DNA of 64,000 bases from Deltaproteobacteria bacterium (GTDB taxonomy: Bacteria > Desulfobacterota > Binatia > Binatales > Binataceae): assembly GCA_003135135.1 (NCBI GenBank), contig PLDK01000007.1:2202-66201 (forward strand), read 5' to 3'. The notes beneath the pieces were generated by a model. That model ran no database searches, was not told the origin of the DNA, and saw nothing but the letters and a program-made list of their open reading frames with translations. Shown here in pieces: positions 38,046-63,256 of the stretch; positions within the stretch are counted from its first letter, which is position 1; every line of letters starts with the position of its first letter. Both the position numbers and the translations under genes were made by a program.

Positions 38046-39797
38046 CTAATTCCCGCCGCCACGGCGGATGGTGAACTGTCCCATTACCAGCAGGTCCATT
38101 TTCGTTCTGAGAAAACAATCGAGCGCCTCTTCAGGGCGGCAAACCACCGGTTCGTTTTCGTTAAAGGAGGTGTTGAGCAGCACCGGTACTCCCGTCTGAC
38201 GGCCGAACTCGCGGATCAGCTTGTGGTATAGCGGGTTCTGCCGCGCATTCACTGTCTGTAGCCTTCCCGTTCCATCAACGTGCGTCGTGGCCGGAATTAC
38301 CGCGCGCTTCTCGGGCCGCACCGGGTATGCCATCAGCATGAACGGTGACGGATACGACTGCGTGAAGTAGTCAGCGGCGGCTTCCTCCAGAATCGAAGGC
38401 GCAAAGGGCCGGAACATTTCGCGGCGCTTGATTTTCGAATTCAGGATGTCGCGCATCCCGGCCCGGCGCGGGTCGGCCACGATACTGCGATTGCCCAGCG
38501 CCCGCGGACCCCACTCCATCCGCCCCTGGAACCATCCCACCACCTGCCCATCCGCGATCGTCGCCGCAGTCACGCGGCAGAGTTCGTCTTCATCTTCGAT
38601 CTTGCTAATCACGCAGCCCTGACTGGCTATTTCAGATTCGCGCGAACTGAGTAATGCCGCGATCTCGTCGGCGCGGAATTCGGGACCCCAATTGGCGTGC
38701 TCCATCACAAACTCGCGCGGCCGCGATGCGCTCGAATGCCATTGATCGAAAGCCGCGCCTATCGCCAGCCCCGCGTCGCCCGCCGCCGACTGTATATAGA
38801 TGTCCTCGAAGCCCGTCTGCTCCAGGATCTTGCCGTTGACGACGCAGTTGTAGGCGACCCCGCCCGCAAGGCAGAGCTTTTTCAGTCCGGTCGCGCGCTG
38901 CAGGTTGCGCAGCCGATCGAGTATCACTTCCTCGAGCCGCCGCTGCATCGACGCCGCGATCGCGATATGGCGTTTGTTCACCGGCTCGGCCGGGTCGCGC
39001 ACCGGGCCCAGCCGGGTCACCAGGAAGTCCGAGTACAGCCTGCCTATTGTGGGCTCGCCTGCGCGCCACGTCATCTCCCCGCCCGACCTCTGATGGGTGA
39101 AGTATTCCGGCGCGAGCATGAAATCCATGCGCCCGCCGTCCGGCGCGATCACGATCTTGCGGAACTCCTCGAGCATCTCCGGCTCCCCGTACGACGCCAG
39201 CCCCATCACCTTGTATTCGTCGCCGTATTTCGGAAACCCCAGGTACTGCGTCAGCGCGGTGTAGAAGATTCCGAGCGAATGCGGAAATGTCACCGCGCCC
39301 ATCGGCGAAATCGTACCGCCGCGCCCCACACCCCACATCGCGCTGGCGAAGTCGCCCAACCCGTCGATCGAAAACAGCGCCGCCTGGTCGAATGGCGAGA
39401 CCAGAAACGAACTCGCGAGATGCGCGCGATGATGCTCGACGCGGCGCACCGGGATCGAACTCTCGCCGACCCCCAGCGCGCGCGCCGCTTCCGCGCCGAT
39501 CGACGCAAAGCGCGATTGCGCGCTCAACCTGTCGCGCGCGGCCGACGGCATCTTAAGCGCGTACCACGCCTTGCGCATGATTCGCGCCCACGGATCCCGC
39601 GCGACGGCCAAGATGTCGATGTCGCGCGGCGACGCGCCTGCCGCAGACACCACGTACTTCAAGGCCTCGACCGGAAAGCCTGCCGCGTGCTTGATGCGGT
39701 TGAAGCGCTCCTCTTCCGCGGCTGCCACCAGCCTGCCGTCCACGATAGCGGCAGCGCTCGCGTCGCCGTGATATGCGTTGATTCCTACAATTAACAT
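38046..39797 (-). CDS. NodU/CmcH-family carbamoyltransferase
   Basis: MLIVGINAYHGDASAAAIVDG...VEHHRAHLASSF...LCLAGGVAYNCVVNGKI...TSFNENEPVV. ATG at 39795-39797; the 5' 325 codons of the track ORF are a high-GC artefact. Confidence 0.85.
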   Translation of the reverse strand: MLIVGINAYHGDASAAAIVDGRLVAAAEEERFNRIKHAAGFPVEALKYVVSAAGASPRDIDILAVARDPWARIMRKAWYALKMPSAARDRLSAQSRFASIGAEAARALGVGESSIPVRRVEHHRAHLASSFLVSPFDQAALFSIDGLGDFASAMWGVGRGGTISPMGAVTFPHSLGIFYTALTQYLGFPKYGDEYKVMGLASYGEPEMLEEFRKIVIAPDGGRMDFMLAPEYFTHQRSGGEMTWRAGEPTIGRLYSDFLVTRLGPVRDPAEPVNKRHIAIAASMQRRLEEVILDRLRNLQRATGLKKLCLAGGVAYNCVVNGKILEQTGFEDIYIQSAAGDAGLAIGAAFDQWHSSASRPREFVMEHANWGPEFRADEIAALLSSRESEIASQGCVISKIEDEDELCRVTAATIADGQVVGWFQGRMEWGPRALGNRSIVADPRRAGMRDILNSKIKRREMFRPFAPSILEEAAADYFTQSYPSPFMLMAYPVRPEKRAVIPATTHVDGTGRLQTVNARQNPLYHKLIREFGRQTGVPVLLNTSFNENEPVVCRPEEALDCFLRTKMDLLVMGQFTIRRGGGN

Positions 39798-41314
39798 TGA
39801 TGACCGCGAACTGAACCTTTCATTATATCGGCAAATTCCTGCGCGCACGTCGCCGTGCGCAAACCGATGAAATAAGCCGCCGCGTGTGCGTGCGCATCGC
39901 GCGGCCACGCGATCCATAGGTCGCGATTCCATGCCCACGACCGCGCACGGACCAGTTCGGTCCTCCTGCCGCGCGTCCAATCCGGCGGCGGCTGCGCGCC
40001 GGGCGCGCCCATCCAGACCAGGTATGAATCGGCGGAGGCCGCGACATTCGGATCGTCGGGAGCCACTTGGCGCAGCCGGACGTTTCGGTACACGGGCGCG
40101 AGTTCCTTGAGCACCTCGCCGGCGCCCTCGATTTGTCCTCCGGCCGGAACCGCGCGCGCGATCGCCGTCTGCACCGCCGCGTTGGCGCGCAGGAAGTCCT
40201 CGTGGAGCGCGGCTATCACCCCGAAGCACGCCACGAAGGCGGCGAGCGCCGCGCTCCGGCTCGCGGTGGTCCAGGCGAATCCCCGTTGCCCGAGCCGCTG
40301 ATCGAGCCAGCGCGCCGCCGGTATGCACGCGATTACCGATGCCGGCAGGATAAAGCGTTGCCCGGGTATCGCGCCCGCGAGCATCGCCGCCGCCGGCGCG
40401 AGTCCGCTGGTAAGGCCGTCGCGATAACCGTAGAGCGACGCTGCTATCACTACGGCAGCCACCGCGGCGGGGGGTTGCCAACCTCGCGACCACCGCGGCG
40501 AAAGCGCCGCAAGTCCTGCCACCGGGAAAATCACGATCGATGCGACGTAGAACGGGAAGAATGACGCGAAGTGCTCGCCGGTAAACCAGAAGGCCTCGCC
40601 GTTGATCGCATAGCCTCCCCGCAGCGCTGACGCCGTGGTGGCATAGTTGTACGCCCCGAGCGCAATGATCGCCGGCGCGGCGCCCGCCGCGAGCGCCACC
40701 GCGTCGGACCAGCGCCCGGCGCGCGGCCGCGACAGCCACCACGCTCCCGCCGACGCGATCGCAAATACCGCCATCCACTCATGCAGCAGGACCGCGGCGC
40801 CAAGCGCGAGTGCTCCCCAGACGCGGCGCGGGCGTTCGCGCCACAGCAGAGCCACCCCGACTGCGCCCATCGCCGCGCTCGGAACGGCGGCCATCAGCGT
40901 CGCCGAGTAGTAGAGCATCCCGGGCAGGATGAAATACAGGATGCACCAGTCGGTCGCGAGTCCCGCCTCCCGCAGCATCGCGCGCACCGCAAACGCGCCC
41001 ACGATGAAAAACGCCGCACTCACCAGGAACCCGAGCCGCCAGTCGCTCGCAACCGCCGGCGCCAGTAGCATCGCGTGAAACGGCGAGTACTTGACGATGC
41101 GGTGGCCGCCGGCCGCGAGCTCCATCGACGGGTTCCAGGTGAGCAGTCCGGCACGGTCGGGATAAACCGTGCCGTGCGCGATGCTGTAGGCGAGCGAGAG
41201 GATCTCGCACTCGTCGGCAATTGCGAACGAGGCCGGATACTCGAGCATAAAGATCGCGCAGAACGCAGCCACCAGTGCAATGAATAACCACTCGCGGCGC
41301 GCCAACGTTGTCAT
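39791..41314 (-). CDS. polytopic membrane protein, putative GT-C-fold glycosyltransferase (ArnT/PMT-like)
   Basis: About 11 predicted TMs plus a C-terminal soluble domain. Acidic first-loop motif IADECEIL. Start MTTLARREWLF at 41314 overlaps the upstream stop as ATGA. Confidence 0.5.
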   Translation of the reverse strand: MTTLARREWLFIALVAAFCAIFMLEYPASFAIADECEILSLAYSIAHGTVYPDRAGLLTWNPSMELAAGGHRIVKYSPFHAMLLAPAVASDWRLGFLVSAAFFIVGAFAVRAMLREAGLATDWCILYFILPGMLYYSATLMAAVPSAAMGAVGVALLWRERPRRVWGALALGAAVLLHEWMAVFAIASAGAWWLSRPRAGRWSDAVALAAGAAPAIIALGAYNYATTASALRGGYAINGEAFWFTGEHFASFFPFYVASIVIFPVAGLAALSPRWSRGWQPPAAVAAVVIAASLYGYRDGLTSGLAPAAAMLAGAIPGQRFILPASVIACIPAARWLDQRLGQRGFAWTTASRSAALAAFVACFGVIAALHEDFLRANAAVQTAIARAVPAGGQIEGAGEVLKELAPVYRNVRLRQVAPDDPNVAASADSYLVWMGAPGAQPPPDWTRGRRTELVRARSWAWNRDLWIAWPRDAHAHAAAYFIGLRTATCAQEFADIMKGSVRGHQC

Positions 41315-42608: not shown

Positions 42609-43229
42609 TTATGAGGAATACTCAGTTGGCTTGAGTGCCTTCACCATTATTGATTTCCACAAAAAGGGGATCCGTCCGACACCTCGCCATTCAACCGCCT
42701 CAAGCCCTGCCGCTACCAGAGCGGCATTCAGCGTCCGCTTAGACCAGAACTTGATGTGGTTGCCCTCATCTAGGGGCTGGTGGTGCCAATCCCACAAACC
42801 CAGCGCGGAGATCGCAACGTTCTTCAGCCAGCCGTGATAGGGCGTACTCAGGATTACGATGCCGCCAGGGTGCAATGCGCCCGCCATGTTCTTCAAGAAG
42901 GTCACGGGCCGATATAGATGCTCGATGACCTCGATTGAGACCAGGGCGTCGAAGGCGTGATTTGCGCCGCTAAATTCTTCGACCGAACCGGCGATAATGT
43001 CCCAGCTACAATCCGAGGAAGCGAGCAGCGCGCGTGCCTTTTCCAGTGATGGACCCGGTAGGTCGATGCCGGTAACACGGTAGCCCAGCTTAGCCAACCG
43101 ATAGCTAAGTTGTCCCCCGCCGCAGCCGGCATCGAGAACCCGGGCGGGCGCAGGTGGCAGCCACTTCTCCACCACCGGCCAAATGATCGTGTGATGGCTG
43201 AGCTGGGTCAGCTGTATATTTTTGTCCAT
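42609..43229 (-). CDS. class I SAM-dependent methyltransferase
   Basis: VLDAGCGGGQLSYRLAKLGYRVTGIDL...FDALVSIEVIEHL...LHPGGIVILSTP. ATG start MDKNIQ at about 43229. An alternative in-frame GTG at about 43293 lies inside a 41-bp copy of the neighbouring GT4 gene start. Confidence 0.7.
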   Translation of the reverse strand: MDKNIQLTQLSHHTIIWPVVEKWLPPAPARVLDAGCGGGQLSYRLAKLGYRVTGIDLPGPSLEKARALLASSDCSWDIIAGSVEEFSGANHAFDALVSIEVIEHLYRPVTFLKNMAGALHPGGIVILSTPYHGWLKNVAISALGLWDWHHQPLDEGNHIKFWSKRTLNAALVAAGLEAVEWRGVGRIPFLWKSIMVKALKPTEYSS

Positions 43230-43440
43230 CGGGGCGACCTCAGCGGCGCGGCGGACGCGGATAGTGCCGGCGTCTTTGTCTGAAGAAATCACTCTTACGA
43301 TCCTGGCTTGATGCCGAGTAGCGCGACATGCGATGCGGTCCGATACAGATTCATGCCCGATCCCGTAGTGTTCAATAGATGAACGGGCGCGCACGCACCA
43401 TCCGAAGACGCGAATCAGCGGGTCAGTCATGGGGGCGCCT

Positions 43441-44646
43441 CTATTCAGCATGCGAGGCGGGCGCGAGATGACCCGTCGATGGAGGTTCGACAGCGGGTTT
43501 GCGATAGAGCGTTGCCTCCGGCCACGTGGCGATCACGGTCCAATCTGTCGGAGGCTCTTCGATGGGCCAGGTCATCACTGTAATTGCGTCGAAACTCTGC
43601 AGATTGACCCGCATCAACAGCGCGCCCGCCGGAACATCGGCAAGACGATGCACAGGCCGAGTGGGCACGCGCGCCTGGATATCGAGAAGGTGCTCAGAAT
43701 TCGATACGATTTCGGCTCGCGGCAGGCTCACCGAAGCAATCTCCCGCCCGAGCCTTGCGTAACGTGGATCGTTTGCTCCCAGGGAATTGGTGGTCAAGGA
43801 GTTGGCCAATGCGAGCAGCATGGTCGCGCACGCGTAGGCCAACCAGTAGCGCTGCGCACCCGGTATTGGCCTCACAGCCAGCAGCATCACCAGCAGGCCA
43901 TAGGCCATTATTCGCGGATCTGTGTCGAAGTGGCTGACGATCAGCAAAAGCCAGGTCAGACCGAATATCGTTCCACCGAGATACAAATATCGTCTGCCGC
44001 CGCGGGCTCGCCGCAGCGTGCTCAGGCATATGAGGGCGATTATCAGGACCAGGCAGAAAGGAACATAGGCCTCCCACCGCCGGATCGAACCATACCAGTT
44101 CGCCAAAAACGCCCGAAAGAAGAAAAAACCGAACTCGCCGAATCCGCTGATGAGCCTGTGAGGAAGGCTGGCATTGATCACCGGCACCAGCATTGCGCCG
44201 ATAGTCAGGTAATTGAAAACAAATATCCCGGCAATGGCGGATGCCCAAATCACAACGATGATTGCATATCGCGCAAATGATAATGGGCGGCGCTCAGTCG
44301 AGAGAAGGCGATCGGACGCAATCATCGCCGGCACAAAAACAACCGAGACCAGCTTCAGCGGCGTGAGAAGGGCCCACAGGCACCCTCCGACAGTCCTAAG
44401 CCTAGCGCTGTTATCGGCTACGCATCGCGCGCCGAGCAAAAAGATCGCGTAATTCAGGATGTCGGGTTTTGCAAACTTGGCCAGGTCTCGAAAGAAGCCC
44501 ACCCCAAGCACCAGAGCAAGGCCCGCCGACGCCAGACTTGACCAGCCGGCATTCTCGGCAAGCAGATAAACCAGGCCGGCGGCGAGCGCGAGCGAGAAAT
44601 AGTTGATCGCGAATGCGGCCCGCAGCGGCGACCCAAAGCGTGACAA
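43441..44646 (-). CDS. polytopic membrane protein (possible GT-C / O-antigen-ligase-like protein); the N-terminus may continue in another frame up to 44885
   Basis: 9-10 predicted TMs plus a C-terminal soluble region. The upstream small ORF 44691-44885 encodes a TM and a DSDAYNY motif in a different frame, suggesting a frameshift or sequencing error. Confidence 0.4.
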   Translation of the reverse strand: MSRFGSPLRAAFAINYFSLALAAGLVYLLAENAGWSSLASAGLALVLGVGFFRDLAKFAKPDILNYAIFLLGARCVADNSARLRTVGGCLWALLTPLKLVSVVFVPAMIASDRLLSTERRPLSFARYAIIVVIWASAIAGIFVFNYLTIGAMLVPVINASLPHRLISGFGEFGFFFFRAFLANWYGSIRRWEAYVPFCLVLIIALICLSTLRRARGGRRYLYLGGTIFGLTWLLLIVSHFDTDPRIMAYGLLVMLLAVRPIPGAQRYWLAYACATMLLALANSLTTNSLGANDPRYARLGREIASVSLPRAEIVSNSEHLLDIQARVPTRPVHRLADVPAGALLMRVNLQSFDAITVMTWPIEEPPTDWTVIATWPEATLYRKPAVEPPSTGHLAPASHAE

Positions 44647-44951: not shown

Positions 44952-46487
44952 TCAGGCATGACGGACTCCTTTTTCTGAGCTAAGACCGCCTAGCGTCATC
45001 GCGTCAACCTCTGCGGCTCGCATCAGCAAGCCAATCAGCGCGATGAAGATGATGCTCCATGGGATCCCGCCAAAAACCATCGAGGTGGCGGAGCCGATAT
45101 CAAGCAATTTCGACAAAACGTAAACGCCGCCAACCATGGCGCCGAGCCCCATTCCGGGATGAACGTACATCTCGATCAGCAGCCGGTAGATCAACCCGAA
45201 TAAGAACATCCCCGCGATCACTCCGATTAGTCCGAAATTCGCATATAACTCGACTAGCTGCGGCAAATTGATCGAAGTGCCGGTGTTCCCGGCGGAGATC
45301 ATGGCGTAACGATGGCCAAACGTCTGTCCGCTCATCTCTTCCGGTTTGTCGGGCCAGACCGCGCGCGGTATCGGTTTGAACAGGATCGGATAGTAAGTCT
45401 CGCCCCCCCAAAAAGGCACCATTGCGGGCGTGTCCGCGATTACTTCGCCGAACGTTGTGAATTGCGCCAGGCGCAGGCTTCCGAATTCGATCAGAGTTTG
45501 CGGATCCACTTCCCCGCCGATCGTGATGCGGTAAAGAATATCTCCGTACAGGCGGCCTTTCTCGATCTCGCCCGCGTCCGATTGTCTTCCGCTCCACGTC
45601 GCCGCTCGATATGGCACCTCCGCCGGTCGAATGATGAACACCGCCGCAATAGTGCCCAGCAGCAGCGTCTTCCATGGGATCGATCGGCGCACGGAAGCGA
45701 AAATGATTGCGACGGCGACGCCGACCATCAGAGGGCCCCCGGACGAGCCGCCGCCCAGGCCGATTGCGATTCTGACCGGAAGCAGAAACCCCCAGACGAA
45801 TGCCGATGTGATCCGATCCAGTCTTCCCGCCAACTGAAGCGCGACCAGTGTGCAGATTCCAACCATCGATAAGTCAGCCGCGAATACGCCGATCTGGGCC
45901 AGGCTCCCGGGCAGCCCATGCGAGGAGGACAAGAACAATCCCCCGACTCCCAGCATCAGCGCGACCATCCGCACTACTCGCTCGTCGCGCCATTGCAAGT
46001 TGAATCGCGGTAGTATCGGTGCGAATAGCCATCTCGCCGGTCCATAGTATCCGGCGAACATGCAGTAGAGAGCGAGTAGTGAGTATCCAAGCGCCAGCGT
46101 GATGAAATGCGGGGCAATAGGCGGCTTGAACAGTCCAATGACATAGTGCCTCAACAGGAAAACCGGCAGCGCGTATGAATAGATGAACATCAGCGTCAGG
46201 AACGGCATGAACGGGATCGTTCGATCCGCCCCCGACATCCATAGCCAGACCGGAAGCGCGAGCGATGCCAGTATCGCGGACGCGAATACTCGCTCGAGGA
46301 TCGTCGGCGCACCGGGCGCGTAGAGGTTCAGAGCGATCAACGCGATTGCGACCGCCGCGAGCAGCTTCAGCGCCTTGCCCGGACTGGCGGACCCCGGCCT
46401 CAGCGTGGTGATTCGCGCATACCACTCGCCATGCGGCGGATGCAGCGCCGCGGACTCGAACCGTTCAGCCATTGGATTCGATCTCAT
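44952..46487 (-). CDS. Wzy-like oligosaccharide repeat-unit polymerase (multi-TM with large periplasmic loop)
   Basis: More than 10 TMs, a central hydrophilic loop and a C-terminal TM cluster. Starts MRSNPMAERFES inside a roughly 90-bp repeat shared with the start of 46567-48006. Confidence 0.45.
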   Translation of the reverse strand: MRSNPMAERFESAALHPPHGEWYARITTLRPGSASPGKALKLLAAVAIALIALNLYAPGAPTILERVFASAILASLALPVWLWMSGADRTIPFMPFLTLMFIYSYALPVFLLRHYVIGLFKPPIAPHFITLALGYSLLALYCMFAGYYGPARWLFAPILPRFNLQWRDERVVRMVALMLGVGGLFLSSSHGLPGSLAQIGVFAADLSMVGICTLVALQLAGRLDRITSAFVWGFLLPVRIAIGLGGGSSGGPLMVGVAVAIIFASVRRSIPWKTLLLGTIAAVFIIRPAEVPYRAATWSGRQSDAGEIEKGRLYGDILYRITIGGEVDPQTLIEFGSLRLAQFTTFGEVIADTPAMVPFWGGETYYPILFKPIPRAVWPDKPEEMSGQTFGHRYAMISAGNTGTSINLPQLVELYANFGLIGVIAGMFLFGLIYRLLIEMYVHPGMGLGAMVGGVYVLSKLLDIGSATSMVFGGIPWSIIFIALIGLLMRAAEVDAMTLGGLSSEKGVRHA

Positions 46488-51249: not shown

Positions 51250-52478
51250 GATGCCGGCGTTGCCTGCGGCTGCGTAAGATCGCATGCCGGAACTTGGCTG
51301 GGTTTCGCCACACCGCTCAATTCGAAAATGCGATCGAGCACCGGGGCAAAGACACGCTCGTAGTTATATTGTTCCTCGAATGCGCGCCGCGCCGCGCGGC
51401 TCATCGTGGCGTATCGCTCGCGGTCCGCGAAGATCGACGTGATCGCGCGCGCGATCGATCCCGGATCTTCGATGTCGGCATACGTCACCCACTCCGCATC
51501 GCCCAGGAAGTCGCGGTAGCTCTCGCGATCCGGCACTACCACCGGCAATCCCATCGCCGCGTATTCGAACAGCTTGTTGCTCGCCGATCCCAGGTATTCC
51601 AGATTCTTCGTCGCTGGCTTGTGGAGCGCGAGTCCCACCGACGCGCGGGAAGCCCGCGCGCGCAACTCATCAAGCGGCAACCATCCGTCCAGCCGGACTC
51701 GCTGCGTGACGCCAAGCTCGCGTGCGAGCGCGTTGAACCTCGCCTCGAATTCAGCAAGATAGCCGCCGATCACCCGCATCCGAATGCTGCCGTCCGTCAT
51801 CGCTAGCGCGCGCAGTCCCTCCAGATGGCCGTTGGCGGCGCTCGCGTAACCGACGTAAACCAATTCCCGCGCGCGATATCTCATCGCGATCGTCTCGTTC
51901 CAATCTGCCGGCCCGGGAAAGTAACTCCGATCGGGACAATTCGGCACGATTATCGGCGCGCGCGAGTCTCCCGCAGCCGTTAGCCAGTGGCGGGCACGAT
52001 ACTTTTCCGGAAACACTGCTGCATCTGCCGACTTGGTGCCGGTTAACGCCGCCTTTACGACCCACGTTTGCATCGAGGTCCACGAGAGACTCGCCGTCTC
52101 CGGCAACTCGTGGAGGTGAAATATCAGCGGCGTCGCTCTCGCGCCCATCCGCCCGACAATGCTTGCGACCAACGCGTACGGGTCGTACGAATAGACAATC
52201 GCCGGCTGCATCTGCTTGACCAGCGCGCGGGTCCGAGCGATGAATTTCGCATATTCGATCAGCTTTGCACCCGCGCCCGCCGCCTCTTTTTCGCGCGGCG
52301 ATGCGTACGCACCGAATCGCTCGATAGTCACATCGGCGGCCCATTCTTCAATCGGCTCGGCCATGTTCCGGCAAAGAATGTGTATAGTGAAATAGCTACT
52401 TAGTATCCGAACTGCATACACTGTCGGCGGATAATAATCCGGATTCGCGTATATCGTGATAAGCAATCGGGGTTTCAT
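51246..52478 (-). CDS. GT4-like glycosyltransferase
   Basis: MKPRLLITIYANPDYYPPTVYAVRIL...LVYVGYASAANGHLEGL...GLALHKPATKNLEYLGSASNKLFEYAAMGLPVVV... Confidence 0.7.
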   Translation of the reverse strand: MKPRLLITIYANPDYYPPTVYAVRILSSYFTIHILCRNMAEPIEEWAADVTIERFGAYASPREKEAAGAGAKLIEYAKFIARTRALVKQMQPAIVYSYDPYALVASIVGRMGARATPLIFHLHELPETASLSWTSMQTWVVKAALTGTKSADAAVFPEKYRARHWLTAAGDSRAPIIVPNCPDRSYFPGPADWNETIAMRYRARELVYVGYASAANGHLEGLRALAMTDGSIRMRVIGGYLAEFEARFNALARELGVTQRVRLDGWLPLDELRARASRASVGLALHKPATKNLEYLGSASNKLFEYAAMGLPVVVPDRESYRDFLGDAEWVTYADIEDPGSIARAITSIFADRERYATMSRAARRAFEEQYNYERVFAPVLDRIFELSGVAKPSQVPACDLTQPQATPAS

Positions 52479-53296
52479 TTCCGAAGCGCGATCACGTGCC
52501 CGTATTCGCTGATGCTCGAAACCGCGGCGCCCCCCATATCCTCGACTTTGAAGCCCAATTCATCCAGCAGGCCGAGAAAGCTCGCGCTGGTCGTGCCCGC
52601 CTCCGCCCACGCGAAAGGATGCACTTCCACCAGGATCGCCCGGGGACGCCGATGTTGTTCAGTCAGGATCGTTCGCGCACCCTGGATAACCTGTTGCTCG
52701 AAGCCCTCGACGTCGATTTTGATGACATCGATTCGCCCGCTGGCAAGCGCCCCGTCGAGCGTGACAAGCGGCACCGTAATCACGCCGTCGCCCGAATCCG
52801 AACGCGTCTCGATTCGCGATTCCATTCCCCGCGCCGCGGCAAAGCAGACTTGTCCGCTGCTCTGGCCGACCGCGGCTCTGATCACGGTTATTCTGTCTTG
52901 CCAGCCGTTAACTCTAACGTTGGCTTCCAGAGCCGATACACTCTGAGGATCGGGTTCGAACGCCGTGACATGGCCCCTCTCCCCGACTCGTCCCGCGAAC
53001 GCCAGCGCGTAGAGTCCAAAACTTGCGCCGACTTCCACCACCTGGTCGCCCGTCCTGACTTCGCGCATCACGCGGCCCCAGACCGCCGGTTCATACTCTT
53101 GCGCAACGAACCCACGCGACTGCGGGCTCAGGCGGATTCTGTCAGTGCCATTGATCACCCGTTCCAGGCCGTGACCCCGCGCAATTGTCGCCAGCATGCG
53201 ATCGTACGCAGGCCGGATCCGGTTCCACAACCAATCGGCATGTTCCAACCCCGGTGCGTGACGGATTGCAGCGCTGGCTCGTTCCAGGATGTTCAT
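52475..53296 (-). CDS. FkbM-family methyltransferase
   Basis: ..VVEVGASFGLYALAFAGRVGERGHVTAFEPDPQS....IDVIKIDVEGFEQQVIQGA... Start MNILERA at 53296 overlaps the GT-C stop as ATGA. Confidence 0.8.
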   Translation of the reverse strand: MNILERASAAIRHAPGLEHADWLWNRIRPAYDRMLATIARGHGLERVINGTDRIRLSPQSRGFVAQEYEPAVWGRVMREVRTGDQVVEVGASFGLYALAFAGRVGERGHVTAFEPDPQSVSALEANVRVNGWQDRITVIRAAVGQSSGQVCFAAARGMESRIETRSDSGDGVITVPLVTLDGALASGRIDVIKIDVEGFEQQVIQGARTILTEQHRRPRAILVEVHPFAWAEAGTTSASFLGLLDELGFKVEDMGGAAVSSISEYGHVIALRK

Positions 53297-54942
53297 GATT
53301 TCCGATTCATTGCGGGCGTTCGTCCAAAAGCGGTGAACCTGACAGGCTGCGGCACAGCTGCGGAGGAAGCATCGGGCGTGTCGTAGAGCCACACCGTTAC
53401 TCCGTTGAAAATGACTGGAGGATGGGTCCGGTATTCGTGCGCCAGCGCGGCAGCCAACTGCACGAATTCCGGTTTGTTCGGGTCGCGCGGATCGAGATCA
53501 ATACCGCCCGGTTTCATGAGCCAGATGCGACGGTAACTCTTCGGGAGTGAATCGACCTTCCCCAGCACACCGCTGGTATAGGACGGAAACCGATTCGTCA
53601 CGATTCGAATCCCATCCACGATATCGCGGTTCTTGCCCAGTATAACGGGGGAAGCATCAGTTTTTGGTTCTCGTGCGGCATAATATTGGAACACGTAGCG
53701 GCACTCCGGGGTGAAGAAAATCGCAGCGTCGCCGGGTTGGCCGTGCCTCATCACGTATTGAGCCGTGCTGCGCCAGTCATCCCGTGAGCGTGAATTGTAT
53801 GAGTCGCGCAGTTCCCACGCAGTCATGGCGACAAGTGCGGCGACAACGATGAGCGCTGCCTTCCGCGGGCGAACAGTCAAAAGGCCTTGCGCGGCGAGTA
53901 CTACGAAAGGCGGAAAGCAAAGCAGGAGATACCGCCCTATCAGCATCGGCACGAAAAACCCGCCCGCGATCGTTGCCATGATCGGAACCAGAAATCCGGC
54001 TGACGCAAATGCGCAACTCTCCCATCCGGACCGATCGTTTCCCTTCTGAAATGACCCGAGAAAGGCCCAGACGAGAAGAAGGACATACGTCAGGCGTAAA
54101 ATCACGCCGGCATTGCCGTGAAGCCCACCGGAGACTGTCACGAAAACATCGGCGATCTCCGCCCATGAAAGCGGAGCAATCCAGCCCGCCTGTCCGGAGT
54201 TCAGCGTCACCATGAAAACCGGAATTAGCGCCAAAGCGACTGCGGCAGCCGCAGTCGCCAGAGCGAGCCTCTTGACGGATGAGAAATCGGGACGCCGAAT
54301 CGCGATGCAGACCCATTGCGCGGGGATAATGCCCAATCCAATAAAATGGCAATAACCCGTGAGCACCATCAGCACGGACCATATGCTCAGATTTCGCGGC
54401 CGGGAATTGTGAAGAGCCGCCAGAAACGCGAGCCAGCACAGGGCGCTCAGAAGTACATAGAGCGAATAGCCGCGCACCTCCTGGGAATACCAGATTTGCA
54501 CCGGGCTGACGGCGGTCATCGCGGCCGCGATCAATCCTGCCCGGCGGCTGAACAGCCGCTCACCGAGATAATAGATCGCCACGATAGCCACGAGGCCAAA
54601 CACTACCGACAACGAGCGCAGCGCCACCTCGCCGGTCCCAAAACAGAGGGTCCAGGGTTTCAAGAGCACGAAGTAAAACGCAGTCCAGGGCTCGTAAAGT
54701 ATCGACAACCAAAATGGGCGCCACGGCTGCATCACGATAGCGGCGCTGAAGCCCTCATCACCCCAGAGGCTGTAGTCGGTGATTTTTAGGATTCGCAGCG
54801 CCGCGCCGGCCAGAACGATGAGCGCAAGCGCAGTCGCCGGTTTCGAAAACCATCGAATCAGCTCGGCACGCGGCTTGCGGCTCTGGGTATTGGCGCGTCC
54901 GGGAAGACCCGGCGTCTGAGACGCGGCGACGGCGTTGGTCAT
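53293..54942 (-). CDS. GT-C-fold membrane glycosyltransferase (GT39/GT83, ArnT/PMT-like)
   Basis: ..ILKITDYSLWGDEGFSAAIV... DE-loop motif, more than 10 TMs, C-terminal periplasmic domain. Confidence 0.75.
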   Translation of the reverse strand: MTNAVAASQTPGLPGRANTQSRKPRAELIRWFSKPATALALIVLAGAALRILKITDYSLWGDEGFSAAIVMQPWRPFWLSILYEPWTAFYFVLLKPWTLCFGTGEVALRSLSVVFGLVAIVAIYYLGERLFSRRAGLIAAAMTAVSPVQIWYSQEVRGYSLYVLLSALCWLAFLAALHNSRPRNLSIWSVLMVLTGYCHFIGLGIIPAQWVCIAIRRPDFSSVKRLALATAAAAVALALIPVFMVTLNSGQAGWIAPLSWAEIADVFVTVSGGLHGNAGVILRLTYVLLLVWAFLGSFQKGNDRSGWESCAFASAGFLVPIMATIAGGFFVPMLIGRYLLLCFPPFVVLAAQGLLTVRPRKAALIVVAALVAMTAWELRDSYNSRSRDDWRSTAQYVMRHGQPGDAAIFFTPECRYVFQYYAAREPKTDASPVILGKNRDIVDGIRIVTNRFPSYTSGVLGKVDSLPKSYRRIWLMKPGGIDLDPRDPNKPEFVQLAAALAHEYRTHPPVIFNGVTVWLYDTPDASSAAVPQPVRFTAFGRTPAMNRKS

Positions 54943-54994
54943 GAGTTAACCGGGTAGAAGACGGGCTCGTTCCAGGATGTTCATGATTTCCGAT

Positions 54995-56026
54995 TCATTG
55001 CGGGCGTTCCTCCAAAACTGGAGGACCTGTCAGGCTGCGGCGCAGCCCCGGTGGAAACATCGGGGACAGCATTCGCGCAACTTTGGCGGGAAGCAGGGCC
55101 CACCCGAGCCGGCAATAGGTCTTCAACATCAGCGGACTATAGCGAATCGATGCGCGGTAGCATCGCCGCGCGAACCAGCGATTGCCGTCGTGCATCGCCA
55201 TCAACCCGACTCCGACCAGCTCGTGTGCGATCGTATTGACCGCCGATTCGGCAAGTGTGCGGCCGCGAGCGCCGAAGTGCTCGCGCACCAGTCGTGCAAA
55301 GACAGTGCTTCCCTCGAATCGGCGCGCGAACTCGCGGAATGCTTGCGCCGAATCGACCTCCAAACGCCGGCTGCGCAGCCGGTTGGCGTACTGTGCGGCG
55401 AATTCCCTGAACGGGCGCCGGACCAGCGTCTCGGGTACGTACCGAATTTCGCCGCGCTCGCGCACCAGCAGCATAATGAAGGTGTCCTCGAAGCCGTAAT
55501 GTCCCGCCTCGAATTCCTCCGAGTACCCGCCGATCGCCAGCAGCGTATCCCGCCGTATGACGGTCGCGCTGGGCAGGTACACCCACAGCCGATCGAGCAT
55601 CTCGTCGAGCGCCGGCGAATGCTGGAATTCGGGTGGAACACAGCACCAAAGTTTCCTGCCTGCGCCGTCCAGCACGATCACGTTCGAATACACCGCCACA
55701 CACGCCGGATTTTTATCGAGCACCGGCACGGTCTTCGACAGCTTGTCCTCCATCCACGTATCGTCGCCGTCCAGCGGCGCGATGTATTCGCCCGACGCCG
55801 CTCTGATACCGGCGTTGCGCGCCACCGACACGCCCGAGTTCTTTTGATCGATCACGCGGATCCGATCGCCGAATTTTGCCAGTATCCCGCGGGTGCCGTC
55901 GGTCGAGCCATCGTTGACGACGATCACCTCGAACTTGGCATCGAACCGCTGTGCCAGCGCGCTTTCCACCGTGGCCGCAATCGTGCCTTCGTCGTTATAG
56001 GTGGGAATCACGACCGACACTTTCAT
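54995..56026 (-). CDS. GT2-family glycosyltransferase (copy A)
   Basis: MKVSVVIPTYNDEGTIAATVESALAQ...VIVVNDGSTDGT...LDGDD... About 85% aa identity to copy B. ATG at 56024-56026. Confidence 0.85.
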   Translation of the reverse strand: MKVSVVIPTYNDEGTIAATVESALAQRFDAKFEVIVVNDGSTDGTRGILAKFGDRIRVIDQKNSGVSVARNAGIRAASGEYIAPLDGDDTWMEDKLSKTVPVLDKNPACVAVYSNVIVLDGAGRKLWCCVPPEFQHSPALDEMLDRLWVYLPSATVIRRDTLLAIGGYSEEFEAGHYGFEDTFIMLLVRERGEIRYVPETLVRRPFREFAAQYANRLRSRRLEVDSAQAFREFARRFEGSTVFARLVREHFGARGRTLAESAVNTIAHELVGVGLMAMHDGNRWFARRCYRASIRYSPLMLKTYCRLGWALLPAKVARMLSPMFPPGLRRSLTGPPVLEERPQ

Positions 56027-56164
56027 TGCGGGCGTTCCTCGAAAACCGGCGGGCCTGACAGGCTGCGCCGCAACCCCTGCGGAAGCATCGGCGACAGCAT
56101 TCCCGCAACTTTGGCGGGCAGCATCGCCCACCCCAGCCGGAAATAGGTCTTCAGCATCCGCGGA

Positions 56165-57127
56165 TTATAGCGAATCGACGCGTGGTAGCATCGCCGCGCG
56201 GCGCATGATCACCCTCAGCTCGACCCCGGCTCCGCGCTTCTCAGCGTGATCGAAGCGCAGGCGGTTGACTCGATTCGCGAGCGCGATGTGGGGCTGCAGT
56301 AGGAGGCGCGCGAGTCGAGGTATCCTGTACGTTCGATATGGATATTCCATAGCCGGATAACCCTCCGACCAGCTTCGTTCGATTACGATGCCGTGGGGTG
56401 AGCCCAGTCTCCGCAGGCTCTCGACCGACAGATAACATACGTGCTCAAGGCACCGGTTCAAATACGACCAGCGGCGGCGCGTGAGCATAAGTGCGCTCGC
56501 ATTGGGAGTGAATATGACCATTACGCCCCCAGGTTTGAGGCATCTCGCGGCCTCGGCAAAAAACGCCGCAACATCTTTAATGTGCTCAAGGACGTCAATC
56601 ATCACGACGATGTCGAATTCGCTAGGAGCGAAATTTGCGGTGCGGAGCGTATCGTGGCGGAGATCCAAACCAAAGTGTTCGCGTCCATATTTCAGTGCGA
56701 CCTGGTTCACATCCAGTCCGACCAACCGGGACGGACCAAGTTGCTTCAGGCTGAAGAGCAATGCTCCATCGGAGCATCCGATCTCTAGAATTGATTTTCC
56801 CCGCAGATCAAGGCTCGCCAATGCTGAATGTCCCAGCAGCGTGCCATTGATCAGGGCTCGCTCTCTTTCTCCGTGATAATCCCACTCCGGGGTGTAGCCA
56901 ATACGCCGGCGGTTCCATGAATCACCGGAGTAGTATTCCGCAGTGTAACATTCACCGATTGCCTCATCGGTAGGTACCGGATCGAGGAACAATAGAGCGC
57001 ACTGCGGACACCGCTTGACCCCTAAACCGTCGATACGAACCGCCGATTTACGGTGCGGTGCGGGCGCGGAACACGCGGGACAGGATGGCTGAGGAATGAG
57101 GTCGGTCGCTGACCAAACGCTAATCAA
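56165..57127 (-). CDS. class I SAM-dependent methyltransferase with an N-terminal Cys4 ribbon
   Basis: CPACSAP...CPQC, then ILEIGCSDGALLFSLKQLG...FDIVVMIDVLEHI...LKPGGVMVIFTP. TTG start at 57125-57127. Its last about 20 codons are read in an alternate frame of a GT2 3'-end remnant. Confidence 0.7.
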   Translation of the reverse strand: MISVWSATDLIPQPSCPACSAPAPHRKSAVRIDGLGVKRCPQCALLFLDPVPTDEAIGECYTAEYYSGDSWNRRRIGYTPEWDYHGERERALINGTLLGHSALASLDLRGKSILEIGCSDGALLFSLKQLGPSRLVGLDVNQVALKYGREHFGLDLRHDTLRTANFAPSEFDIVVMIDVLEHIKDVAAFFAEAARCLKPGGVMVIFTPNASALMLTRRRWSYLNRCLEHVCYLSVESLRRLGSPHGIVIERSWSEGYPAMEYPYRTYRIPRLARLLLQPHIALANRVNRLRFDHAEKRGAGVELRVIMRRAAMLPRVDSL

Positions 57128-57181
57128 GCAATCCCTCCGTCTGCAACGCTGGCTCGTGCCAGGAAGTTCATGATTCCCGAT

Positions 57182-58213
57182 TCATTGCGGGCGTTCCTCG
57201 AAAACCGGCGGCCCTGACAGGCTACGCCGCAACCCATGCGGAAGCATCGGCGACAGCATTCCCGCAACTTTGGCGGGCAGCATCGCCCACCCCAGCCGGA
57301 AATAGGTCTTCAGCATCCGCGGATTATAGCGAATCGACGCGCGGTAGCATCGCCGCGCAAGCCGGCGATCGCCCTGGTGCATCGCCATCAACCCGACTCC
57401 GATCAGCTCGCGTGCGACGCTATCGATCGCCAATGCCGCAATTTTGCGGCCGCGAGCGCCGAAGTGCTCGCGCGTCAATCGCGCAAAGACAATGTTTGCC
57501 TCGTAGCGGCGTTCGAACTCGCGAAATGCTTGCGCTGAATCGATCTCGAAGCGCCGGCTGCGCATCCGGTTGGCGAGGTGTTCGCGAAATTCCCGGTAAC
57601 GGTACCGGACCAGCGTCTCGGGCACGTAGAGAATTTCGCCGCGCTCCCGCACCAGCAGCATAATGAAAACGTCCTCGTAAGCATAATGTTCCGGCTTGAA
57701 TTTCTCCGAGAAGCCGCCGATCGCCAGGATCGTCTCGCGCCGGATGACGCACGCGCTGGGCAGGTACGCCCACAGCCGATCGAGCATCTCGTCGAGCGTC
57801 GGTGAATGCCGGAATTCCGGCGTGACCGGGTACGAAACGACCCTGCCCGCATCGTCCACCCCGATCACGTTCGAAGCCACCGCCACGCACGCCGGATTTT
57901 CATCGAGCACCGGCACCGTCTTCGCCAGCTTGTCCTCGGTCCACGTGTCGTCGCCGTCCAGCAGTGCGATATATTCGCCCGACGCCGCTCTGATGCCGGC
58001 GTTGCGCGCCGCCGACACGCCCGAGTTCTTTTGATCGATCACCCGGATCCGATCGCCGAATTTTGCCAGTATCCCGCGTGTGCCGTCGGTCGAGCCGTCG
58101 TTGACGACGATCACCTCGAACCCGGCCTCGAACCGCTGCGCCAGTGCGCTCTCCACCGTGGCCGCAATCGTGCCTTCGTCGTTATAGGTGGGAATCACGA
58201 CCGACACTTTCAT
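57182..58213 (-). CDS. GT2-family glycosyltransferase (copy B, tandem paralogue of copy A)
   Basis: MKVSVVIPTYNDEGTIAATVESALAQRFEAGFEVIVVNDGSTDGT... Start ATGA-overlaps the stop of 58210-59634. Confidence 0.85.
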   Translation of the reverse strand: MKVSVVIPTYNDEGTIAATVESALAQRFEAGFEVIVVNDGSTDGTRGILAKFGDRIRVIDQKNSGVSAARNAGIRAASGEYIALLDGDDTWTEDKLAKTVPVLDENPACVAVASNVIGVDDAGRVVSYPVTPEFRHSPTLDEMLDRLWAYLPSACVIRRETILAIGGFSEKFKPEHYAYEDVFIMLLVRERGEILYVPETLVRYRYREFREHLANRMRSRRFEIDSAQAFREFERRYEANIVFARLTREHFGARGRKIAALAIDSVARELIGVGLMAMHQGDRRLARRCYRASIRYNPRMLKTYFRLGWAMLPAKVAGMLSPMLPHGLRRSLSGPPVFEERPQ

Positions 58214-59556
58214 TGCGGGCGATTCTCCAGGCTGACCAACGGCGCAACCGCGGGCGCGAGCTTGCGGTACACGGTTAACATCTCGTCGGCGACTTGCTCC
58301 ATCGTTCGACTCTTCGGCATCCCAAGTCGAAGCCGGGGCAGCAGCCCAGGTTCTGCGAGCAATCGATTGAACGCCGTGACCCAGGCCTTGATTGACGCAG
58401 GCTCGACCAGCAACCCGTTTTTCTCGTTCTCCACAAGTTCCGCGATTCCACCCAGATTGGAACCAATGACCGGAATACCCGCGGCGAATGCCTCCAGCAC
58501 TACCAGCGGACCGGTCTCCAACCATTGCGAGGGGACGGCGAGACAGTCGTATCCGCGAAGTTCGGATATCGCATTCACGTTGGCAAATGGCGGGAGCAGC
58601 CGGATGCGCTGATCGCCTGCGTCCACCACTTTTCGCTTGATGGACTGCGCTTCGCTGTCATTTGCGATGCCGAATATATCAAGCTTGAGTCGGGGGCTGC
58701 TGATTCGCCGCATCGCCTCGAGCAGAATATCGATGCCCTTCTCGCGCGCCAGCCTCCCCAGGAAGGCAATGCGGATATCCTCACCAGCCCTTCGCGGTTC
58801 GCCTGGATAGTTCAGTTGCGCCGAGTTGCGCAGTGCATGATGCGAGATTGTCAGCTTCGACTTGTCCACGCCGTTTCGCAGCATCAAATCGTAAACCCAG
58901 TTGCACACCGCGACTATTGCGTCAGCTTCCTCGAACAGACCCTTTACCGCGTCTTTGCGCAGTTGTATAAGCTCCGACGCGCGCACCGCCGTCATCAGTC
59001 TTCCTTCCAGCCCGAGCTTGCCGACACGTTCACCTATGGCGACAGGCAGACTGGCTACTGCAATACTGAGTGCGCGGCTAAGTCCTTTGCCGTGAAGCAT
59101 GCAAGCGGCGCATGGCGCTGACTCCAGGTCGCCATCGCATTGCTCGATGCCCCAGCGCAACAGAGTTCCGCGGACGCAACTGACAGTGGGCGTATGATAG
59201 GTGAACACGACCGGGATACCCGCGGCTTTGGCGGTGCGCAATACCCTCAGTGACACCCCGGCGGTCCAGGAATGCAGGTGCACTACATCGGGTGCGCAAG
59301 ACTCAAGGACCTTTGCAAACGACTGTGCCGCAACCGGATCCCCAAGGCCATATAGATTGGCCAAGCTCGGAGTACCGGTCGCGAATCGATGCACCGTCAG
59401 GTCATTGTATCGATATGAACGCTGATCAGCCGCCGGAACCGCGATTTCCGCCTCAACCTCCAGCTTACGCAGGCACATAGCCAGCGATTCGACGTATATC
59501 TCGGTGCCACCAACTGGATCAGGGTAGAAGCAGAACGGAAGGTGCAAAGTTTTCAT
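58210..59556 (-). CDS. GT4-family glycosyltransferase
   Basis: MKTLHLPFCFYPDPVGGTEIYVESLAMCL...IAFLGRLAREKGIDILLEAM...VPSQWLETGPLVVLEAFAAGIPVIGS... Ends ...ENRPQ*, sharing the 3'-end motif of the GT2 genes. Confidence 0.8.
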   Translation of the reverse strand: MKTLHLPFCFYPDPVGGTEIYVESLAMCLRKLEVEAEIAVPAADQRSYRYNDLTVHRFATGTPSLANLYGLGDPVAAQSFAKVLESCAPDVVHLHSWTAGVSLRVLRTAKAAGIPVVFTYHTPTVSCVRGTLLRWGIEQCDGDLESAPCAACMLHGKGLSRALSIAVASLPVAIGERVGKLGLEGRLMTAVRASELIQLRKDAVKGLFEEADAIVAVCNWVYDLMLRNGVDKSKLTISHHALRNSAQLNYPGEPRRAGEDIRIAFLGRLAREKGIDILLEAMRRISSPRLKLDIFGIANDSEAQSIKRKVVDAGDQRIRLLPPFANVNAISELRGYDCLAVPSQWLETGPLVVLEAFAAGIPVIGSNLGGIAELVENEKNGLLVEPASIKAWVTAFNRLLAEPGLLPRLRLGMPKSRTMEQVADEMLTVYRKLAPAVAPLVSLENRPQ

Positions 59557-59758
59557 TGCGCTCACGATGACACAAAGAGCAGCCGCATTTCGTCTCTTCC
59601 CACTACCCCCTTCTAGCAGGCCGTCCGGCCGCATCTTTGTTTTAACATTGGGTGCATGGCTTACCCCTGGCCGTTGGCACGGCTGGCTCTTCCATGGTGT
59701 AGTCGCGAAAAGATGCGCTGCGCAGATTTTCGCGTCTTTTTAACACCGGGTGCAGGGG

Positions 59759-62200: not shown

Positions 62201-63256
62201 TCAAACCTTGGGGCGAAGATTGCGGACAAAGCGGGGATGCAACGTCTCGCTATCGTCGGGGTGAGGCGACGGGTCGTCAAGCGTCGATGCGGGCTCGTCG
62301 GTCACTTGATTCAGGCCCTCGAGCTGCGCTTTGGCGCGGCGAATGAAATCCGACCCGAGAATCCATGTGCAGATGAGCGCGAAGGTGATCGAGGCGGCCA
62401 GCGTCGCCTTCTGGCGCGCTTTGGGTGCGAAATAATTGTCAGGCACGACCGGAGGTTCGACGACCTTGAACGCGAAGTCGGATTGCACCTGCGCGAGTTT
62501 CTCGCGCTGAATCTGCCGCGCCATCAGCTCGTAGAGTTGAGTCTGCAAAAGCGCGTCGGAAGTTTTGCGGACCTCATCCTGCAAGGAAGCGGCCGCGCTG
62601 GCGCCGGCTTGCACTTCCTCGTTGCGCAGCTTGTCGCGCAGGCTGTCGAGGTAAAATCCGAGCACGCGTTGAGCTTCTTCAGGCGACGGATCCACGAAAT
62701 ACACGCTGAGGTTGCCGCTCTTGAAGTCGTATTCGGTGCTGAATCGACCCGCGATCATTGTATGAATCGCCCACTTCGTCACGGGCGGCGCATTCTTGCT
62801 TCGGACGCCGATGATGGTGTGCTCGAGATGATACTTATTGACCAGGTCGGTCGTGAACGCATAGCTGTTCATGATCGCCGTATAGCGCTCGGCCAGCATA
62901 GTCGTGTCGGAGGCACCGCCGCCGAGCAGCGAGGCGATTCCCCCTCCCAATCCACCAACCATGTCACCGGCGGTTCCTGTCCCCATTGAGAGACCCTCTT
63001 CGGGCTGCACCGGAGTGACGATGGCCTGCGCGCGATACCACTTCACGGTCATGTATTTTATGTACAACCCGTAGCCGAGGCCGATGCCGATTGTCAGGGT
63101 TACAATCAGGATCCATCGCGCATACAGCAGGCCGCCGTAATGGAGAAGCTCCAGCATTGCATATTGCGCCTCGGTGAGATCACGGGGCACGCCGGCAGCG
63201 GAAGCGGTTGCGCCCGCGGACGAAGTCGAATGCCCGTTGATTCCCGAAGGATCCAT
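62201..63256 (-). CDS. Wzz-like chain-length determinant / polysaccharide co-polymerase (PCP)
   Basis: N-terminal TM (WILIVTLTIGIGLGYGLY), periplasmic coiled-coil region and C-terminal TM (ATLAASITFALICTWILG), the usual PCP topology. Its 3' end overlaps 60988-62280 by about 80 nt. Confidence 0.6.
   Translation of the reverse strand: MDPSGINGHSTSSAGATASAAGVPRDLTEAQYAMLELLHYGGLLYARWILIVTLTIGIGLGYGLYIKYMTVKWYRAQAIVTPVQPEEGLSMGTGTAGDMVGGLGGGIASLLGGGASDTTMLAERYTAIMNSYAFTTDLVNKYHLEHTIIGVRSKNAPPVTKWAIHTMIAGRFSTEYDFKSGNLSVYFVDPSPEEAQRVLGFYLDSLRDKLRNEEVQAGASAAASLQDEVRKTSDALLQTQLYELMARQIQREKLAQVQSDFAFKVVEPPVVPDNYFAPKARQKATLAASITFALICTWILGSDFIRRAKAQLEGLNQVTDEPASTLDDPSPHPDDSETLHPRFVRNLRPKV

Follow-up and report, generated by a model that had tools for sequence, protein, structure and literature searches.

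Recurrent gene-tail repeats and putative gene capture in a glycosyltransferase array of Candidatus Binatus

Why does the same short sequence recur between successive genes of a bacterial glycan locus, and does it mark a site where gene cassettes are exchanged? The locus in question lies in a stretch of 64,000 nucleotides (hereafter, the window; contig PLDK01000007.1 of assembly GCA_003135135.1, positions 2,202 to 66,201) from an uncultured peat bacterium, Candidatus Binatus (Binatota), listed in older records as "Deltaproteobacteria". A preliminary description of the window had reported a recurrent module of ca. 50 bp with shorter cores among tandem GT2 glycosyltransferase genes, and had read it as a product of cassette shuffling by homologous recombination. 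The feature is real and well supported. We explain it, with a probability of roughly 0.65, by an old tandem GT2 array and two genes captured with duplication of the target, the tails of GT2 genes doubling as signals of translational coupling.

All genes at 46-64 kb, and all elements of the array described here, are on the minus strand. In the reading direction, the block starts with the GT4a glycosyltransferase gene (58210-59556; Pfam Glycos_transf_1/Glyco_trans_4_4), which ends in ..LENRPQ and whose stop overlaps the start of GT2-B as ATGA. GT2-B (57182-58213, 343 aa; PF00535, 1e-36; ending in ..GPPVFEERPQ) is the first GT2 gene of the array. It is followed by a class-I S-adenosylmethionine (SAM) methyltransferase gene, MT (56165-57127; Methyltransf_23), GT2-A (54995-56026, 343 aa; assigned by Pfam), which is an old paralogue of GT2-B, a membrane glycosyltransferase gene of the PMT_2/GT-C type, GT-C (53293-54942, 549 aa; PF13231), and an intact FkbM-family methyltransferase gene (52475-53296; PF05050).

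The repeats between these genes were recovered as described. The core, TTCATTGCGGGCGTTCCTC (19 nt, plus strand), occurs five times with zero to two mismatches (53306, 54994, 56022, 57181, and 58209), while none is expected by chance (100 shuffles). A 49-mer occurs three times, exactly at 54964-55012, with one mismatch at 53276-53324, and with three at 57151-57199; the start of the FkbM gene, ATGAACATCCTGGAACGAGCC, is also found three times, at 53276-53296, 54964-54984, and 57151-57171. Self-BLAST of the region, for which the preliminary description had proposed a dot-plot, yielded three classes of repeats. Positions 54964-56037 match 57151-58225 with 87% identity over 1081 nt, that is, GT2-A matches GT2-B together with the following junction. 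Positions 56022-56199 (remnant R) match the tail of GT2-B, 57181-57358 (tail B), with 97.8% identity over 178 nt, with four differences and the longest exact run of 105 nt. Finally, 53276-53376 match 54964-55064 with 89% identity over 101 nt, pairing the GT-C 3' end and the FkbM start with the GT2-A tail and an orphan FkbM start. The GT2-A and GT2-B proteins are 79.3% identical (272/343; 87% at the DNA level), less than the ca. 85% given initially, and the four "genes" ending in RPQ are GT4a, GT2-B, GT2-A, and a 44-aa remnant open reading frame (ORF).

The module is best read as the last ~20-180 nt of a GT2 gene, which code for the final part of a conserved C-terminal domain (..LSGPPxxEERPQ and a stop). 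Its long form adds a mini-ORF of five codons and the first 7-10 codons of FkbM. The repeat of importance is the GT2 3' tail, 71-283 nt long, rather than a dedicated 50-bp site. The latter was dropped, as the third-position identity in 33 codon-aligned GT2 copies showed no hotspot signature: it was 0.64 in the first ten codons, 0.53-0.61 in the last codons, and 0.59 overall. Synonymous sites at the gene ends are not conserved beyond the ordinary level, so that nothing sets the junction apart as a specialised site of recombination.

The conservation of the module is better explained by protein constraint together with a role in translation initiation. We compared 16 related Binatus-type loci (loci are denoted below by L numbers). 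Throughout this set, GT2 genes end in ..LSGPPxxEERPQ, and the next GT2 starts with MKVSVVIPTYN via an ATGA overlap; the long junction form, J, is also kept. A Shine-Dalgarno-like motif, GGAGGA or GAGGAA, lies inside the GT2 tail 8-9 nt before the overlapping ATG; the stop/start overlap and the motif within the upstream ORF are conserved in the 16 loci. More generally, GGAGGA, GAGGAA, or GGAGGG is found 5-9 nt upstream of overlapping starts, and ATGA or TTGA overlaps link GT4a to GT2-B, R to GT2-A, GT-C to FkbM, FkbM to GT4d, and an orphan FkbM start to MT. Thus, the module is best read as a gene end plus a translation-initiation region.

The long form J has the structure TGA-ATCGGAAATC-ATGAACATCCTGGAACGAGCC. 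The start codon of its mini-ORF, MNRKS or MNRES, lies over the GT2 stop, and its TGA lies over the FkbM ATG, yielding an ATGA overlap at both ends. Five sense codons, a start-type codon (ATG, GTG, or TTG) at the GT2 stop, and the TGA at the FkbM start are present in all ~15 J junctions from ~9 species (three in the window, three in L008, two in L009, and those in L014, L015, L018, L021, L037, and L038); the codons vary between junctions, while the length is constant. This suggests that the mini-ORF may be a termination-reinitiation relay. The predicted RNA structure at the junctions was not above that of shuffled sequence (z from -0.5 to +2.1), and Rfam had no matches in 50-64 kb; a riboregulator or an attC-like element at the junctions was rejected on these grounds. 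Cassette-borne promoters and terminators were rejected likewise, their counts in 51-64 kb being no higher than in shuffles. Unstructured junction RNA and the lack of promoter or terminator excess fit a single coupled operon.

How did the tails come to flank genes that are not GT2? The first case is MT. GT2-B is followed by junction J' (57124-57185), which consists of the relay mini-ORF MNRES (57168-57185) and the orphan FkbM start, reading MNFLARASVADGGIA and a stop (57124-57171). The TGA of this orphan overlaps the TTG start of MT as TTGA, and GGAGGG is located 5 nt before the TTG. At the other end, the last 12 codons of MT are read from remnant R, out of the GT2 frame, with the stop at 56165, in agreement with the preliminary description. 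The latter had also noted a GT2 3' remnant of about 180 bp here; the remnant exists, but at 56023-56199 rather than 56041-56210, and is the 178-nt duplicate of tail B. Seven nucleotides after the MT TAA comes the ATG of the 44-aa in-frame remnant ORF (56023-56157), which ends as ATGA on GT2-A, and R supplies the Shine-Dalgarno motif (GAGGAA) of GT2-A.

A search in a collection of 5.8 billion proteins yielded only two relatives of MT, 73% identical at the amino acid level, residing on contigs of 2-3 kb in a different context, one of them after a Wzx-like gene. The DNA-level homology of MT to both relatives ends exactly at 56199 and 57132, and these positions delimit the inserted fragment proper. 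As judged from the relatives, the native protein has ~17 more residues at the N-terminus and ends 4-5 codons past the join. Hence MT is short by 4-5 codons at its 3' join at 56199, where at most 1-2 nt are shared, and on the 5' side it is preceded by the orphan FkbM start, itself a likely product of another illegitimate join. The GC content of the insert (56.8%, compared to 59.2% in the window) deviates weakly.

Both L008, which is 95% identical to the window at the nucleotide level, and L009 lack MT, and in both GT2_1 directly abuts GT2_2. The single tail of L008_1 (10856-11033) aligns to both copies in the window, tail B and R. The three tails form a star-like relation with ~2 private changes each, which means that R and tail B derive from one ancestral tail; judging by these changes, the duplication that gave rise to R would date to around the split of the window species and the L008 species.

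The second case is GT-C, flanked by the 101-nt duplication that comprises the last 70 nt of the tail, J, and 20 nt of FkbM. Upstream of it, junction J'' (54946-54998) consists of the relay mini-ORF MNRKS (54981-54998) and the second orphan FkbM start, MNILERARLLPG and a stop (54946-54984); the two orphans at 54964 and 57151 thus read as had been claimed. The GT-C ATG is 3 nt after the TAA of the J'' orphan. The last ~27 codons of GT-C are read from remnant R2 (53307-53376), which corresponds to the final 70 nt of a GT2 tail and whose GT2 frame reads ..SLSGSPLLDERPQ and a stop. The translated gene ends confirm that GT-C terminates in ..AMNRKS and that its stop shares ATGA with the FkbM start; the relay mini-ORF MNRKS (53293-53310) precedes FkbM. 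GT-C is present in L008 and L009, and absent in L010, L011, and L036. As the J'' orphan and R2 are also found in L008 and L009, the GT-C capture predates the three species. The GT2/FkbM junction J itself is conserved genus-wide. A third case of an insert with a remnant, J-FkbM2-R3, is seen in L008.

In the explanation that we favor, the module would recur for two reasons, namely, an old head-to-tail array of GT2 paralogues in the Binatus exopolysaccharide operon, and the capture of two non-GT2 genes by target-duplicating events. These would have placed MT between 178-nt copies of the GT2-B tail, and GT-C between 101-nt copies of tail, J, and FkbM start. A target duplication of this kind would leave the upstream GT2 intact and provide the downstream gene with its own ribosome-binding site, the outcome being a continuous chain of stop/start-coupled ORFs. 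The coding ends of MT and GT-C are cut short and continue into the tail in a different frame, which means that capture requires one or more illegitimate joins. Among known processes, homology-facilitated illegitimate recombination, seen as "3'-end displacement" in Rhs and type VI secretion system (T6SS) arrays, offers the best analogy, and we infer a mechanism of this type. Once flanked by tails, a cassette could undergo loss or duplication as one tail recombines with another in the ordinary homologous way, which would account for the differences between species.

The array is indeed older than the window species. In the 16 loci, the conserved flanks are Wzz and GT4b on one side, and GT4d, GT4e, and a Glyco_trans_1_2 gene on the other. 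Between them are two to five head-to-tail GT2 genes abutting by ATGA, with GT4a, FkbM, GT-C, and various methyltransferases variably present. At least two head-to-tail paralogues of the same orientation are found in the window (GT2-B, R, GT2-A) and in L008-L023. The order in the window is GT4a-GT2B-[J'-MT-R]-GT2A-[J''-GTC-R2]-J-FkbM. L008 has GT4a-GT2_1-GT2_2-GT2div-rSAM::tail-GT2_4-J-FkbM2-R3-J''-GTC-R2-J-FkbM, and L009 has the same without GT2_4-J-FkbM2-R3. L010 contains GT4a and four GT2 copies, followed by FkbM with an ATGA overlap, and L011 has two GT2 copies, an orphan FkbM start, and GT4d. In a neighbour-joining tree, the GT2 copies cluster mostly by position: the orthologues of GT2-B are L008_1, L009_1, L010_1, and L011_1, and those of GT2-A are L008_2 and L009_2. 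Therefore, the A/B duplication predates these species. Duplications specific to individual lineages are L010_3/4 and L019_3/5. Our search of the literature on Binatota glycosyltransferases and on tandem duplication of bacterial glycosyltransferases found nothing relevant.

The first 300 nt of GT2-B (57914-58213) and GT2-A (55727-56026) are 93-95% identical, equal to the identity of orthologues, compared to 78-89% in the remainder; similarly, L009_1 and L009_2 are 96% identical in nt 150-300 and share private variants. Gene conversion limited to the 5' part of GT2 is possible, and constraint could also account for the similarity. A chimeric origin of the GT2-A tail in the window was considered and set aside, as the alignment was too uninformative to place a crossover.

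The GT2 tail is also found outside GT2 genes. Radical-SAM proteins at L008 13189-14406, L009 13189-14382, and L020 11035-12159 carry a GT2-tail-like domain in frame; this C-terminal domain of ~110-125 aa is 56% identical to residues 221-343 of GT2-B, and no PDB sequence match covers it. We considered the gene in L008 and L009 as a fourth insert with a remnant and rejected this, since the same in-frame fusion, 66% identical over its full length, is present in the unrelated locus L020. Hence the tail is a genuine protein domain of GT2 and radical-SAM enzymes. Two further observations concern the comparison set. L019 (DATNLS010000109.1, 2967-9035) comes from a metagenome-assembled genome (MAG) labelled "Candidatus Acidiferrales" and is syntenic with the other Binatus-type loci, with GT2 present in five tandem copies; the label may reflect a binning error or transfer. 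Fused or frame-shifted GT4a, GT2, FkbM, or GT4d genes occur in several MAG loci of sister species (L009 8657-11032, L015 11055-11872, L021 11032-12053, and L023 11041-13525), in part on contigs as long as 592 kb, and could be sequencing or assembly indels or real pseudogenes.

The differences between genomes coincide with the repeats. Positions 12061-16615 of L008 have no counterpart in the window, and the overlap at this boundary (GT2_2 tail/R3) is 71 nt; from L009 the window differs by the absence of GT2div-rSAM, where the overlap is 283 nt; the overlap at the MT boundary, with L008 as the reference, is 178 nt. A scan of metagenomes with a 24-nt J pattern returned six stretches, too few for a population survey; one of them, contig L036, is 94-97% identical to L008 and lacks J''-GT-C exactly between repeats of ~109 nt. 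It also has a GT2-B-like tail ahead of GT2_4. Thus, wherever an indel could be mapped, direct repeats of the GT2 tail (71-283 nt) lie at its boundaries. In L019, an orphan FkbM start (MNLLERAGVA) between the third and fourth GT2 genes is joined to the next GT2 ATG at a CGCAAT microhomology; such an orphan is expected from the tandem duplication of a two-gene unit, and this duplication looks recent. L011 (VNILERAG..) and L013 retain orphan FkbM starts where FkbM is gone. Taken together, these findings support the view that cassettes were lost and duplicated through homologous recombination of GT2 tails with one another.

Within the species, by contrast with the variation between species, the locus is invariant. 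Six contigs match the window over 12 kb with 100% identity; they originate from different samples of the Joint Genome Institute (JGI) and from the NCBI MAG GCA_003153535.1. In a seventh locus, from a 99.2% identical strain, the genes follow one another in the same order. Each of the two GT2 genes, A and B, occurs on contigs belonging to 38 blocks of the public collection, and all 24 contigs that were read have the same neighbouring genes, so that at least 24 contigs share the arrangement. Contigs of sister species, 336 kb and 1.57 Mb long, carry the same kind of array. Hence the locus is not an assembly artefact, a caveat raised in the preliminary description, and the polymorphism among strains suggested there is not seen. 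There is no sign of ongoing shuffling in this species. Still, the idea of cassette shuffling is partly supported between species, where the gene content varies and indels are bounded by tail repeats; it finds no support as an ongoing or site-specific process, as the A/B duplication is old, no dedicated site is evident, the arrangement is fixed within the species, and the captures need illegitimate joins.

Several points weigh against the scheme of array and target-duplicating capture. The search of 5.8 billion proteins revealed no donor locus with a tail or J ahead of MT. Capture by homology-facilitated illegitimate recombination requires that the incoming DNA already carried the tail, J, and the orphan before the new gene, and the first illegitimate join must then have taken place earlier, in an ancestor not seen here. 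The gene ends show no excess synonymous conservation genus-wide, and no polymorphism was found among the contigs of the species. The direction of the indels, gain or loss, follows from parsimony over only 3-5 species, and translational coupling is deduced from stop/start overlaps and the embedded Shine-Dalgarno motifs.

Some of these points would fit a passive origin, in which a few random illegitimate indels left scars, the gene ends were conserved for the sake of protein and translation, and the repeats played no causal part later. The ordinary level of synonymous conservation at the junctions, the invariance within the species, and the age of the events, with the GT-C capture common to three species, are all in line with this. 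However, four independent indels (two between the window and L008, one between the window and L009, and one between L036 and L008) have all their breakpoints in the tail or J repeats of 71-283 nt, a coincidence that is unexpected from random breakpoints, and L011, L013, and L019 have further orphan FkbM starts, at sites independent of one another. We regard passive scars as unlikely, if worth keeping in view.

Gene decay, with orphans and remnants being leftovers of complete FkbM and GT2 genes deleted beside MT and GT-C and no target duplication involved, is improbable. Deletions leaving orphan FkbM starts do occur, as in L011 and L013. But R is 97.8% identical to the GT2-B tail, compared to ~87% between true paralogues, the star-like relation of the three tails speaks against decay, and there is nothing between GT2_1 and GT2_2 in L008 and L009. 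Moreover, four precise deletions would be needed instead of two insertions.

We find it very improbable that the repeats serve programmed or high-frequency switching, excising MT or GT-C in some cells and making glycan modification phase-variable. Direct repeats of 178 nt and 101 nt do flank single accessory genes, and excision would restore intact, coupled junctions. On the other hand, both cassettes are present in all contigs read, although these are consensus assemblies that cannot show minority variants, and there are neither recombinases nor inverted repeats. A repeat-induced misjoin or expansion in a short-read MAG is hardly credible: repeats of 100-1000 nt can confuse assemblers, but these have diverged (87%, 89%, and 97.8% with four differences) and hence can be assembled, and the identical contigs from different sources, the 99.2% strain, and the long contigs of sister species all show the same architecture. 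Finally, integron-like or mobile-element cassettes driven by a site-specific recombinase, suggested by promoterless co-oriented genes with a recurrent junction sequence, can be dismissed, as Pfam finds no integrase or transposase domain in any gene at 38-63 kb, the junctions have no attC-like inverted repeat, hairpin, or other structure, and the repeats vary in length and consist of ordinary coding sequence.

The favored explanation of an old array with captured genes could be taken one step further. The GT2 tail with its Shine-Dalgarno motif and ATGA might be a portable adaptor: any promoterless gene with tail copies on both sides would become a cassette that RecA-type recombination could insert behind any GT2 gene, excise, or duplicate, and that would automatically be plugged into the coupling chain. 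If true, glycan diversification in Binatota would have a cassette system that is driven by homology and needs no integrase; we consider it a doubtful extension.

The glycosyltransferase block is flanked by more GT4 genes and a Wzz-like gene; upstream, as seen in L001, are Wzi (PF14052) and SLT. The export-type matches, Wzz (62201-63256) and Wzy-like (44952-46487), are both weak, and no clear match to Wzx was found among the genes of the locus. Downstream, in the same orientation, are a class-I methyltransferase gene (42609-43451) and a gene for a 910-aa carbamoyltransferase (Carbam_trans_N/C; 38046-40778). Together with the co-oriented Wzy-like gene, they extend the glycan locus to at least 25 kb, and its product is probably a methylated or carbamoylated polysaccharide, as judged from the gene content. 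The only sizeable non-coding gap in the operon is the GT4b-GT4a spacer (59557-59758). It contains a direct repeat of ~35 nt in two copies (59642-59659 and 59740-59757; core TTAACAYYGGGTGCAKGG; 0.02 expected) and folds somewhat better than shuffles (z = -1.9), with no match in Rfam. The position of the spacer is taken by a methyltransferase gene in L008 and by a sulfatase gene and DUF4410 in L011.

Overall, the locus illustrates sugar-locus diversification clearly, if in a fairly ordinary way, and it involves no new enzymatic or genetic system. Comparison of several species shows in good resolution how an operon for surface polysaccharide has diversified within an uncultured phylum of soil and peat: accessory genes (two methyltransferases and the GT-C enzyme) have array-derived flanks and are gained or lost exactly at these flanks. 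The practical value is mainly in annotation, where no genes should be called at orphan starts, remnant ORFs, or frame-shifted gene ends, and in studies of the evolution of glycan loci.

Among known systems, O-antigen and capsule clusters, such as the S/M modules of Yersinia pseudotuberculosis and Salmonella group D2, feature remnants, intra-locus recombination, and, where modules are "mature", tight coupling (Kenyon, Cunneen & Reeves 2017, PMC5399914). Similarly, the Binatus locus has a hypervariable block of glycosyltransferase and modification genes between conserved flanks, remnants marking past replacements, abutting start and stop codons read as coupling, and homologous recombination in sequences shared within the cluster. 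In O-antigen clusters the shared sequences are pathway genes or insertion sequence (IS) elements, whereas here they are the 3' tails of tandem GT2 genes, the inserts carry duplicated targets, and the host is an uncultured soil bacterium of the Binatota. Compared to plain tandem arrays formed by unequal crossing-over and gene conversion, there are the same head-to-tail paralogues, a copy number of 2-5, and lineage-specific duplications, but the Binatus array is interrupted by unrelated genes with array-derived flanks. As the GT2 copies have diverged (60-87% nucleotide identity), recombination should be infrequent. The junctions resemble those of translationally coupled operons, with ATGA or TTGA overlaps and a GGAGGA-type Shine-Dalgarno motif 8-9 nt upstream in the GT2 tail; unlike ordinary coupled junctions, they include a conserved candidate relay mini-ORF of five codons that overlaps at both ends and bridges GT2 and FkbM.

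The closest parallel to capture is offered by Rhs, contact-dependent inhibition (CDI), and T6SS effector loci, whose 3'-end displacement arrays have been proposed to arise via homology-facilitated illegitimate recombination (Kirchberger et al. 2017, PMC5361080). There, as would be the case here, the incoming segment has conserved upstream sequence as its anchor at one end and an illegitimate join at the other, the resident fragment is displaced downstream as an orphan, and the homology kept in this way later permits homologous recombination. Resident fragments downstream of newcomers are indeed found in Binatus (R of 178 nt, R2 of 70 nt, and R3 after FkbM2 in L008). Unlike Rhs and T6SS loci, there are no toxin/immunity pairs, and the displaced pieces are short non-functional GT2 tails doubling as ribosome-binding sites. 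This suggests a reason why the remnants persist, as they serve the downstream genes in translation, and the "displacement scar" logic of Rhs and T6SS loci may thus be extended to glycan operons.

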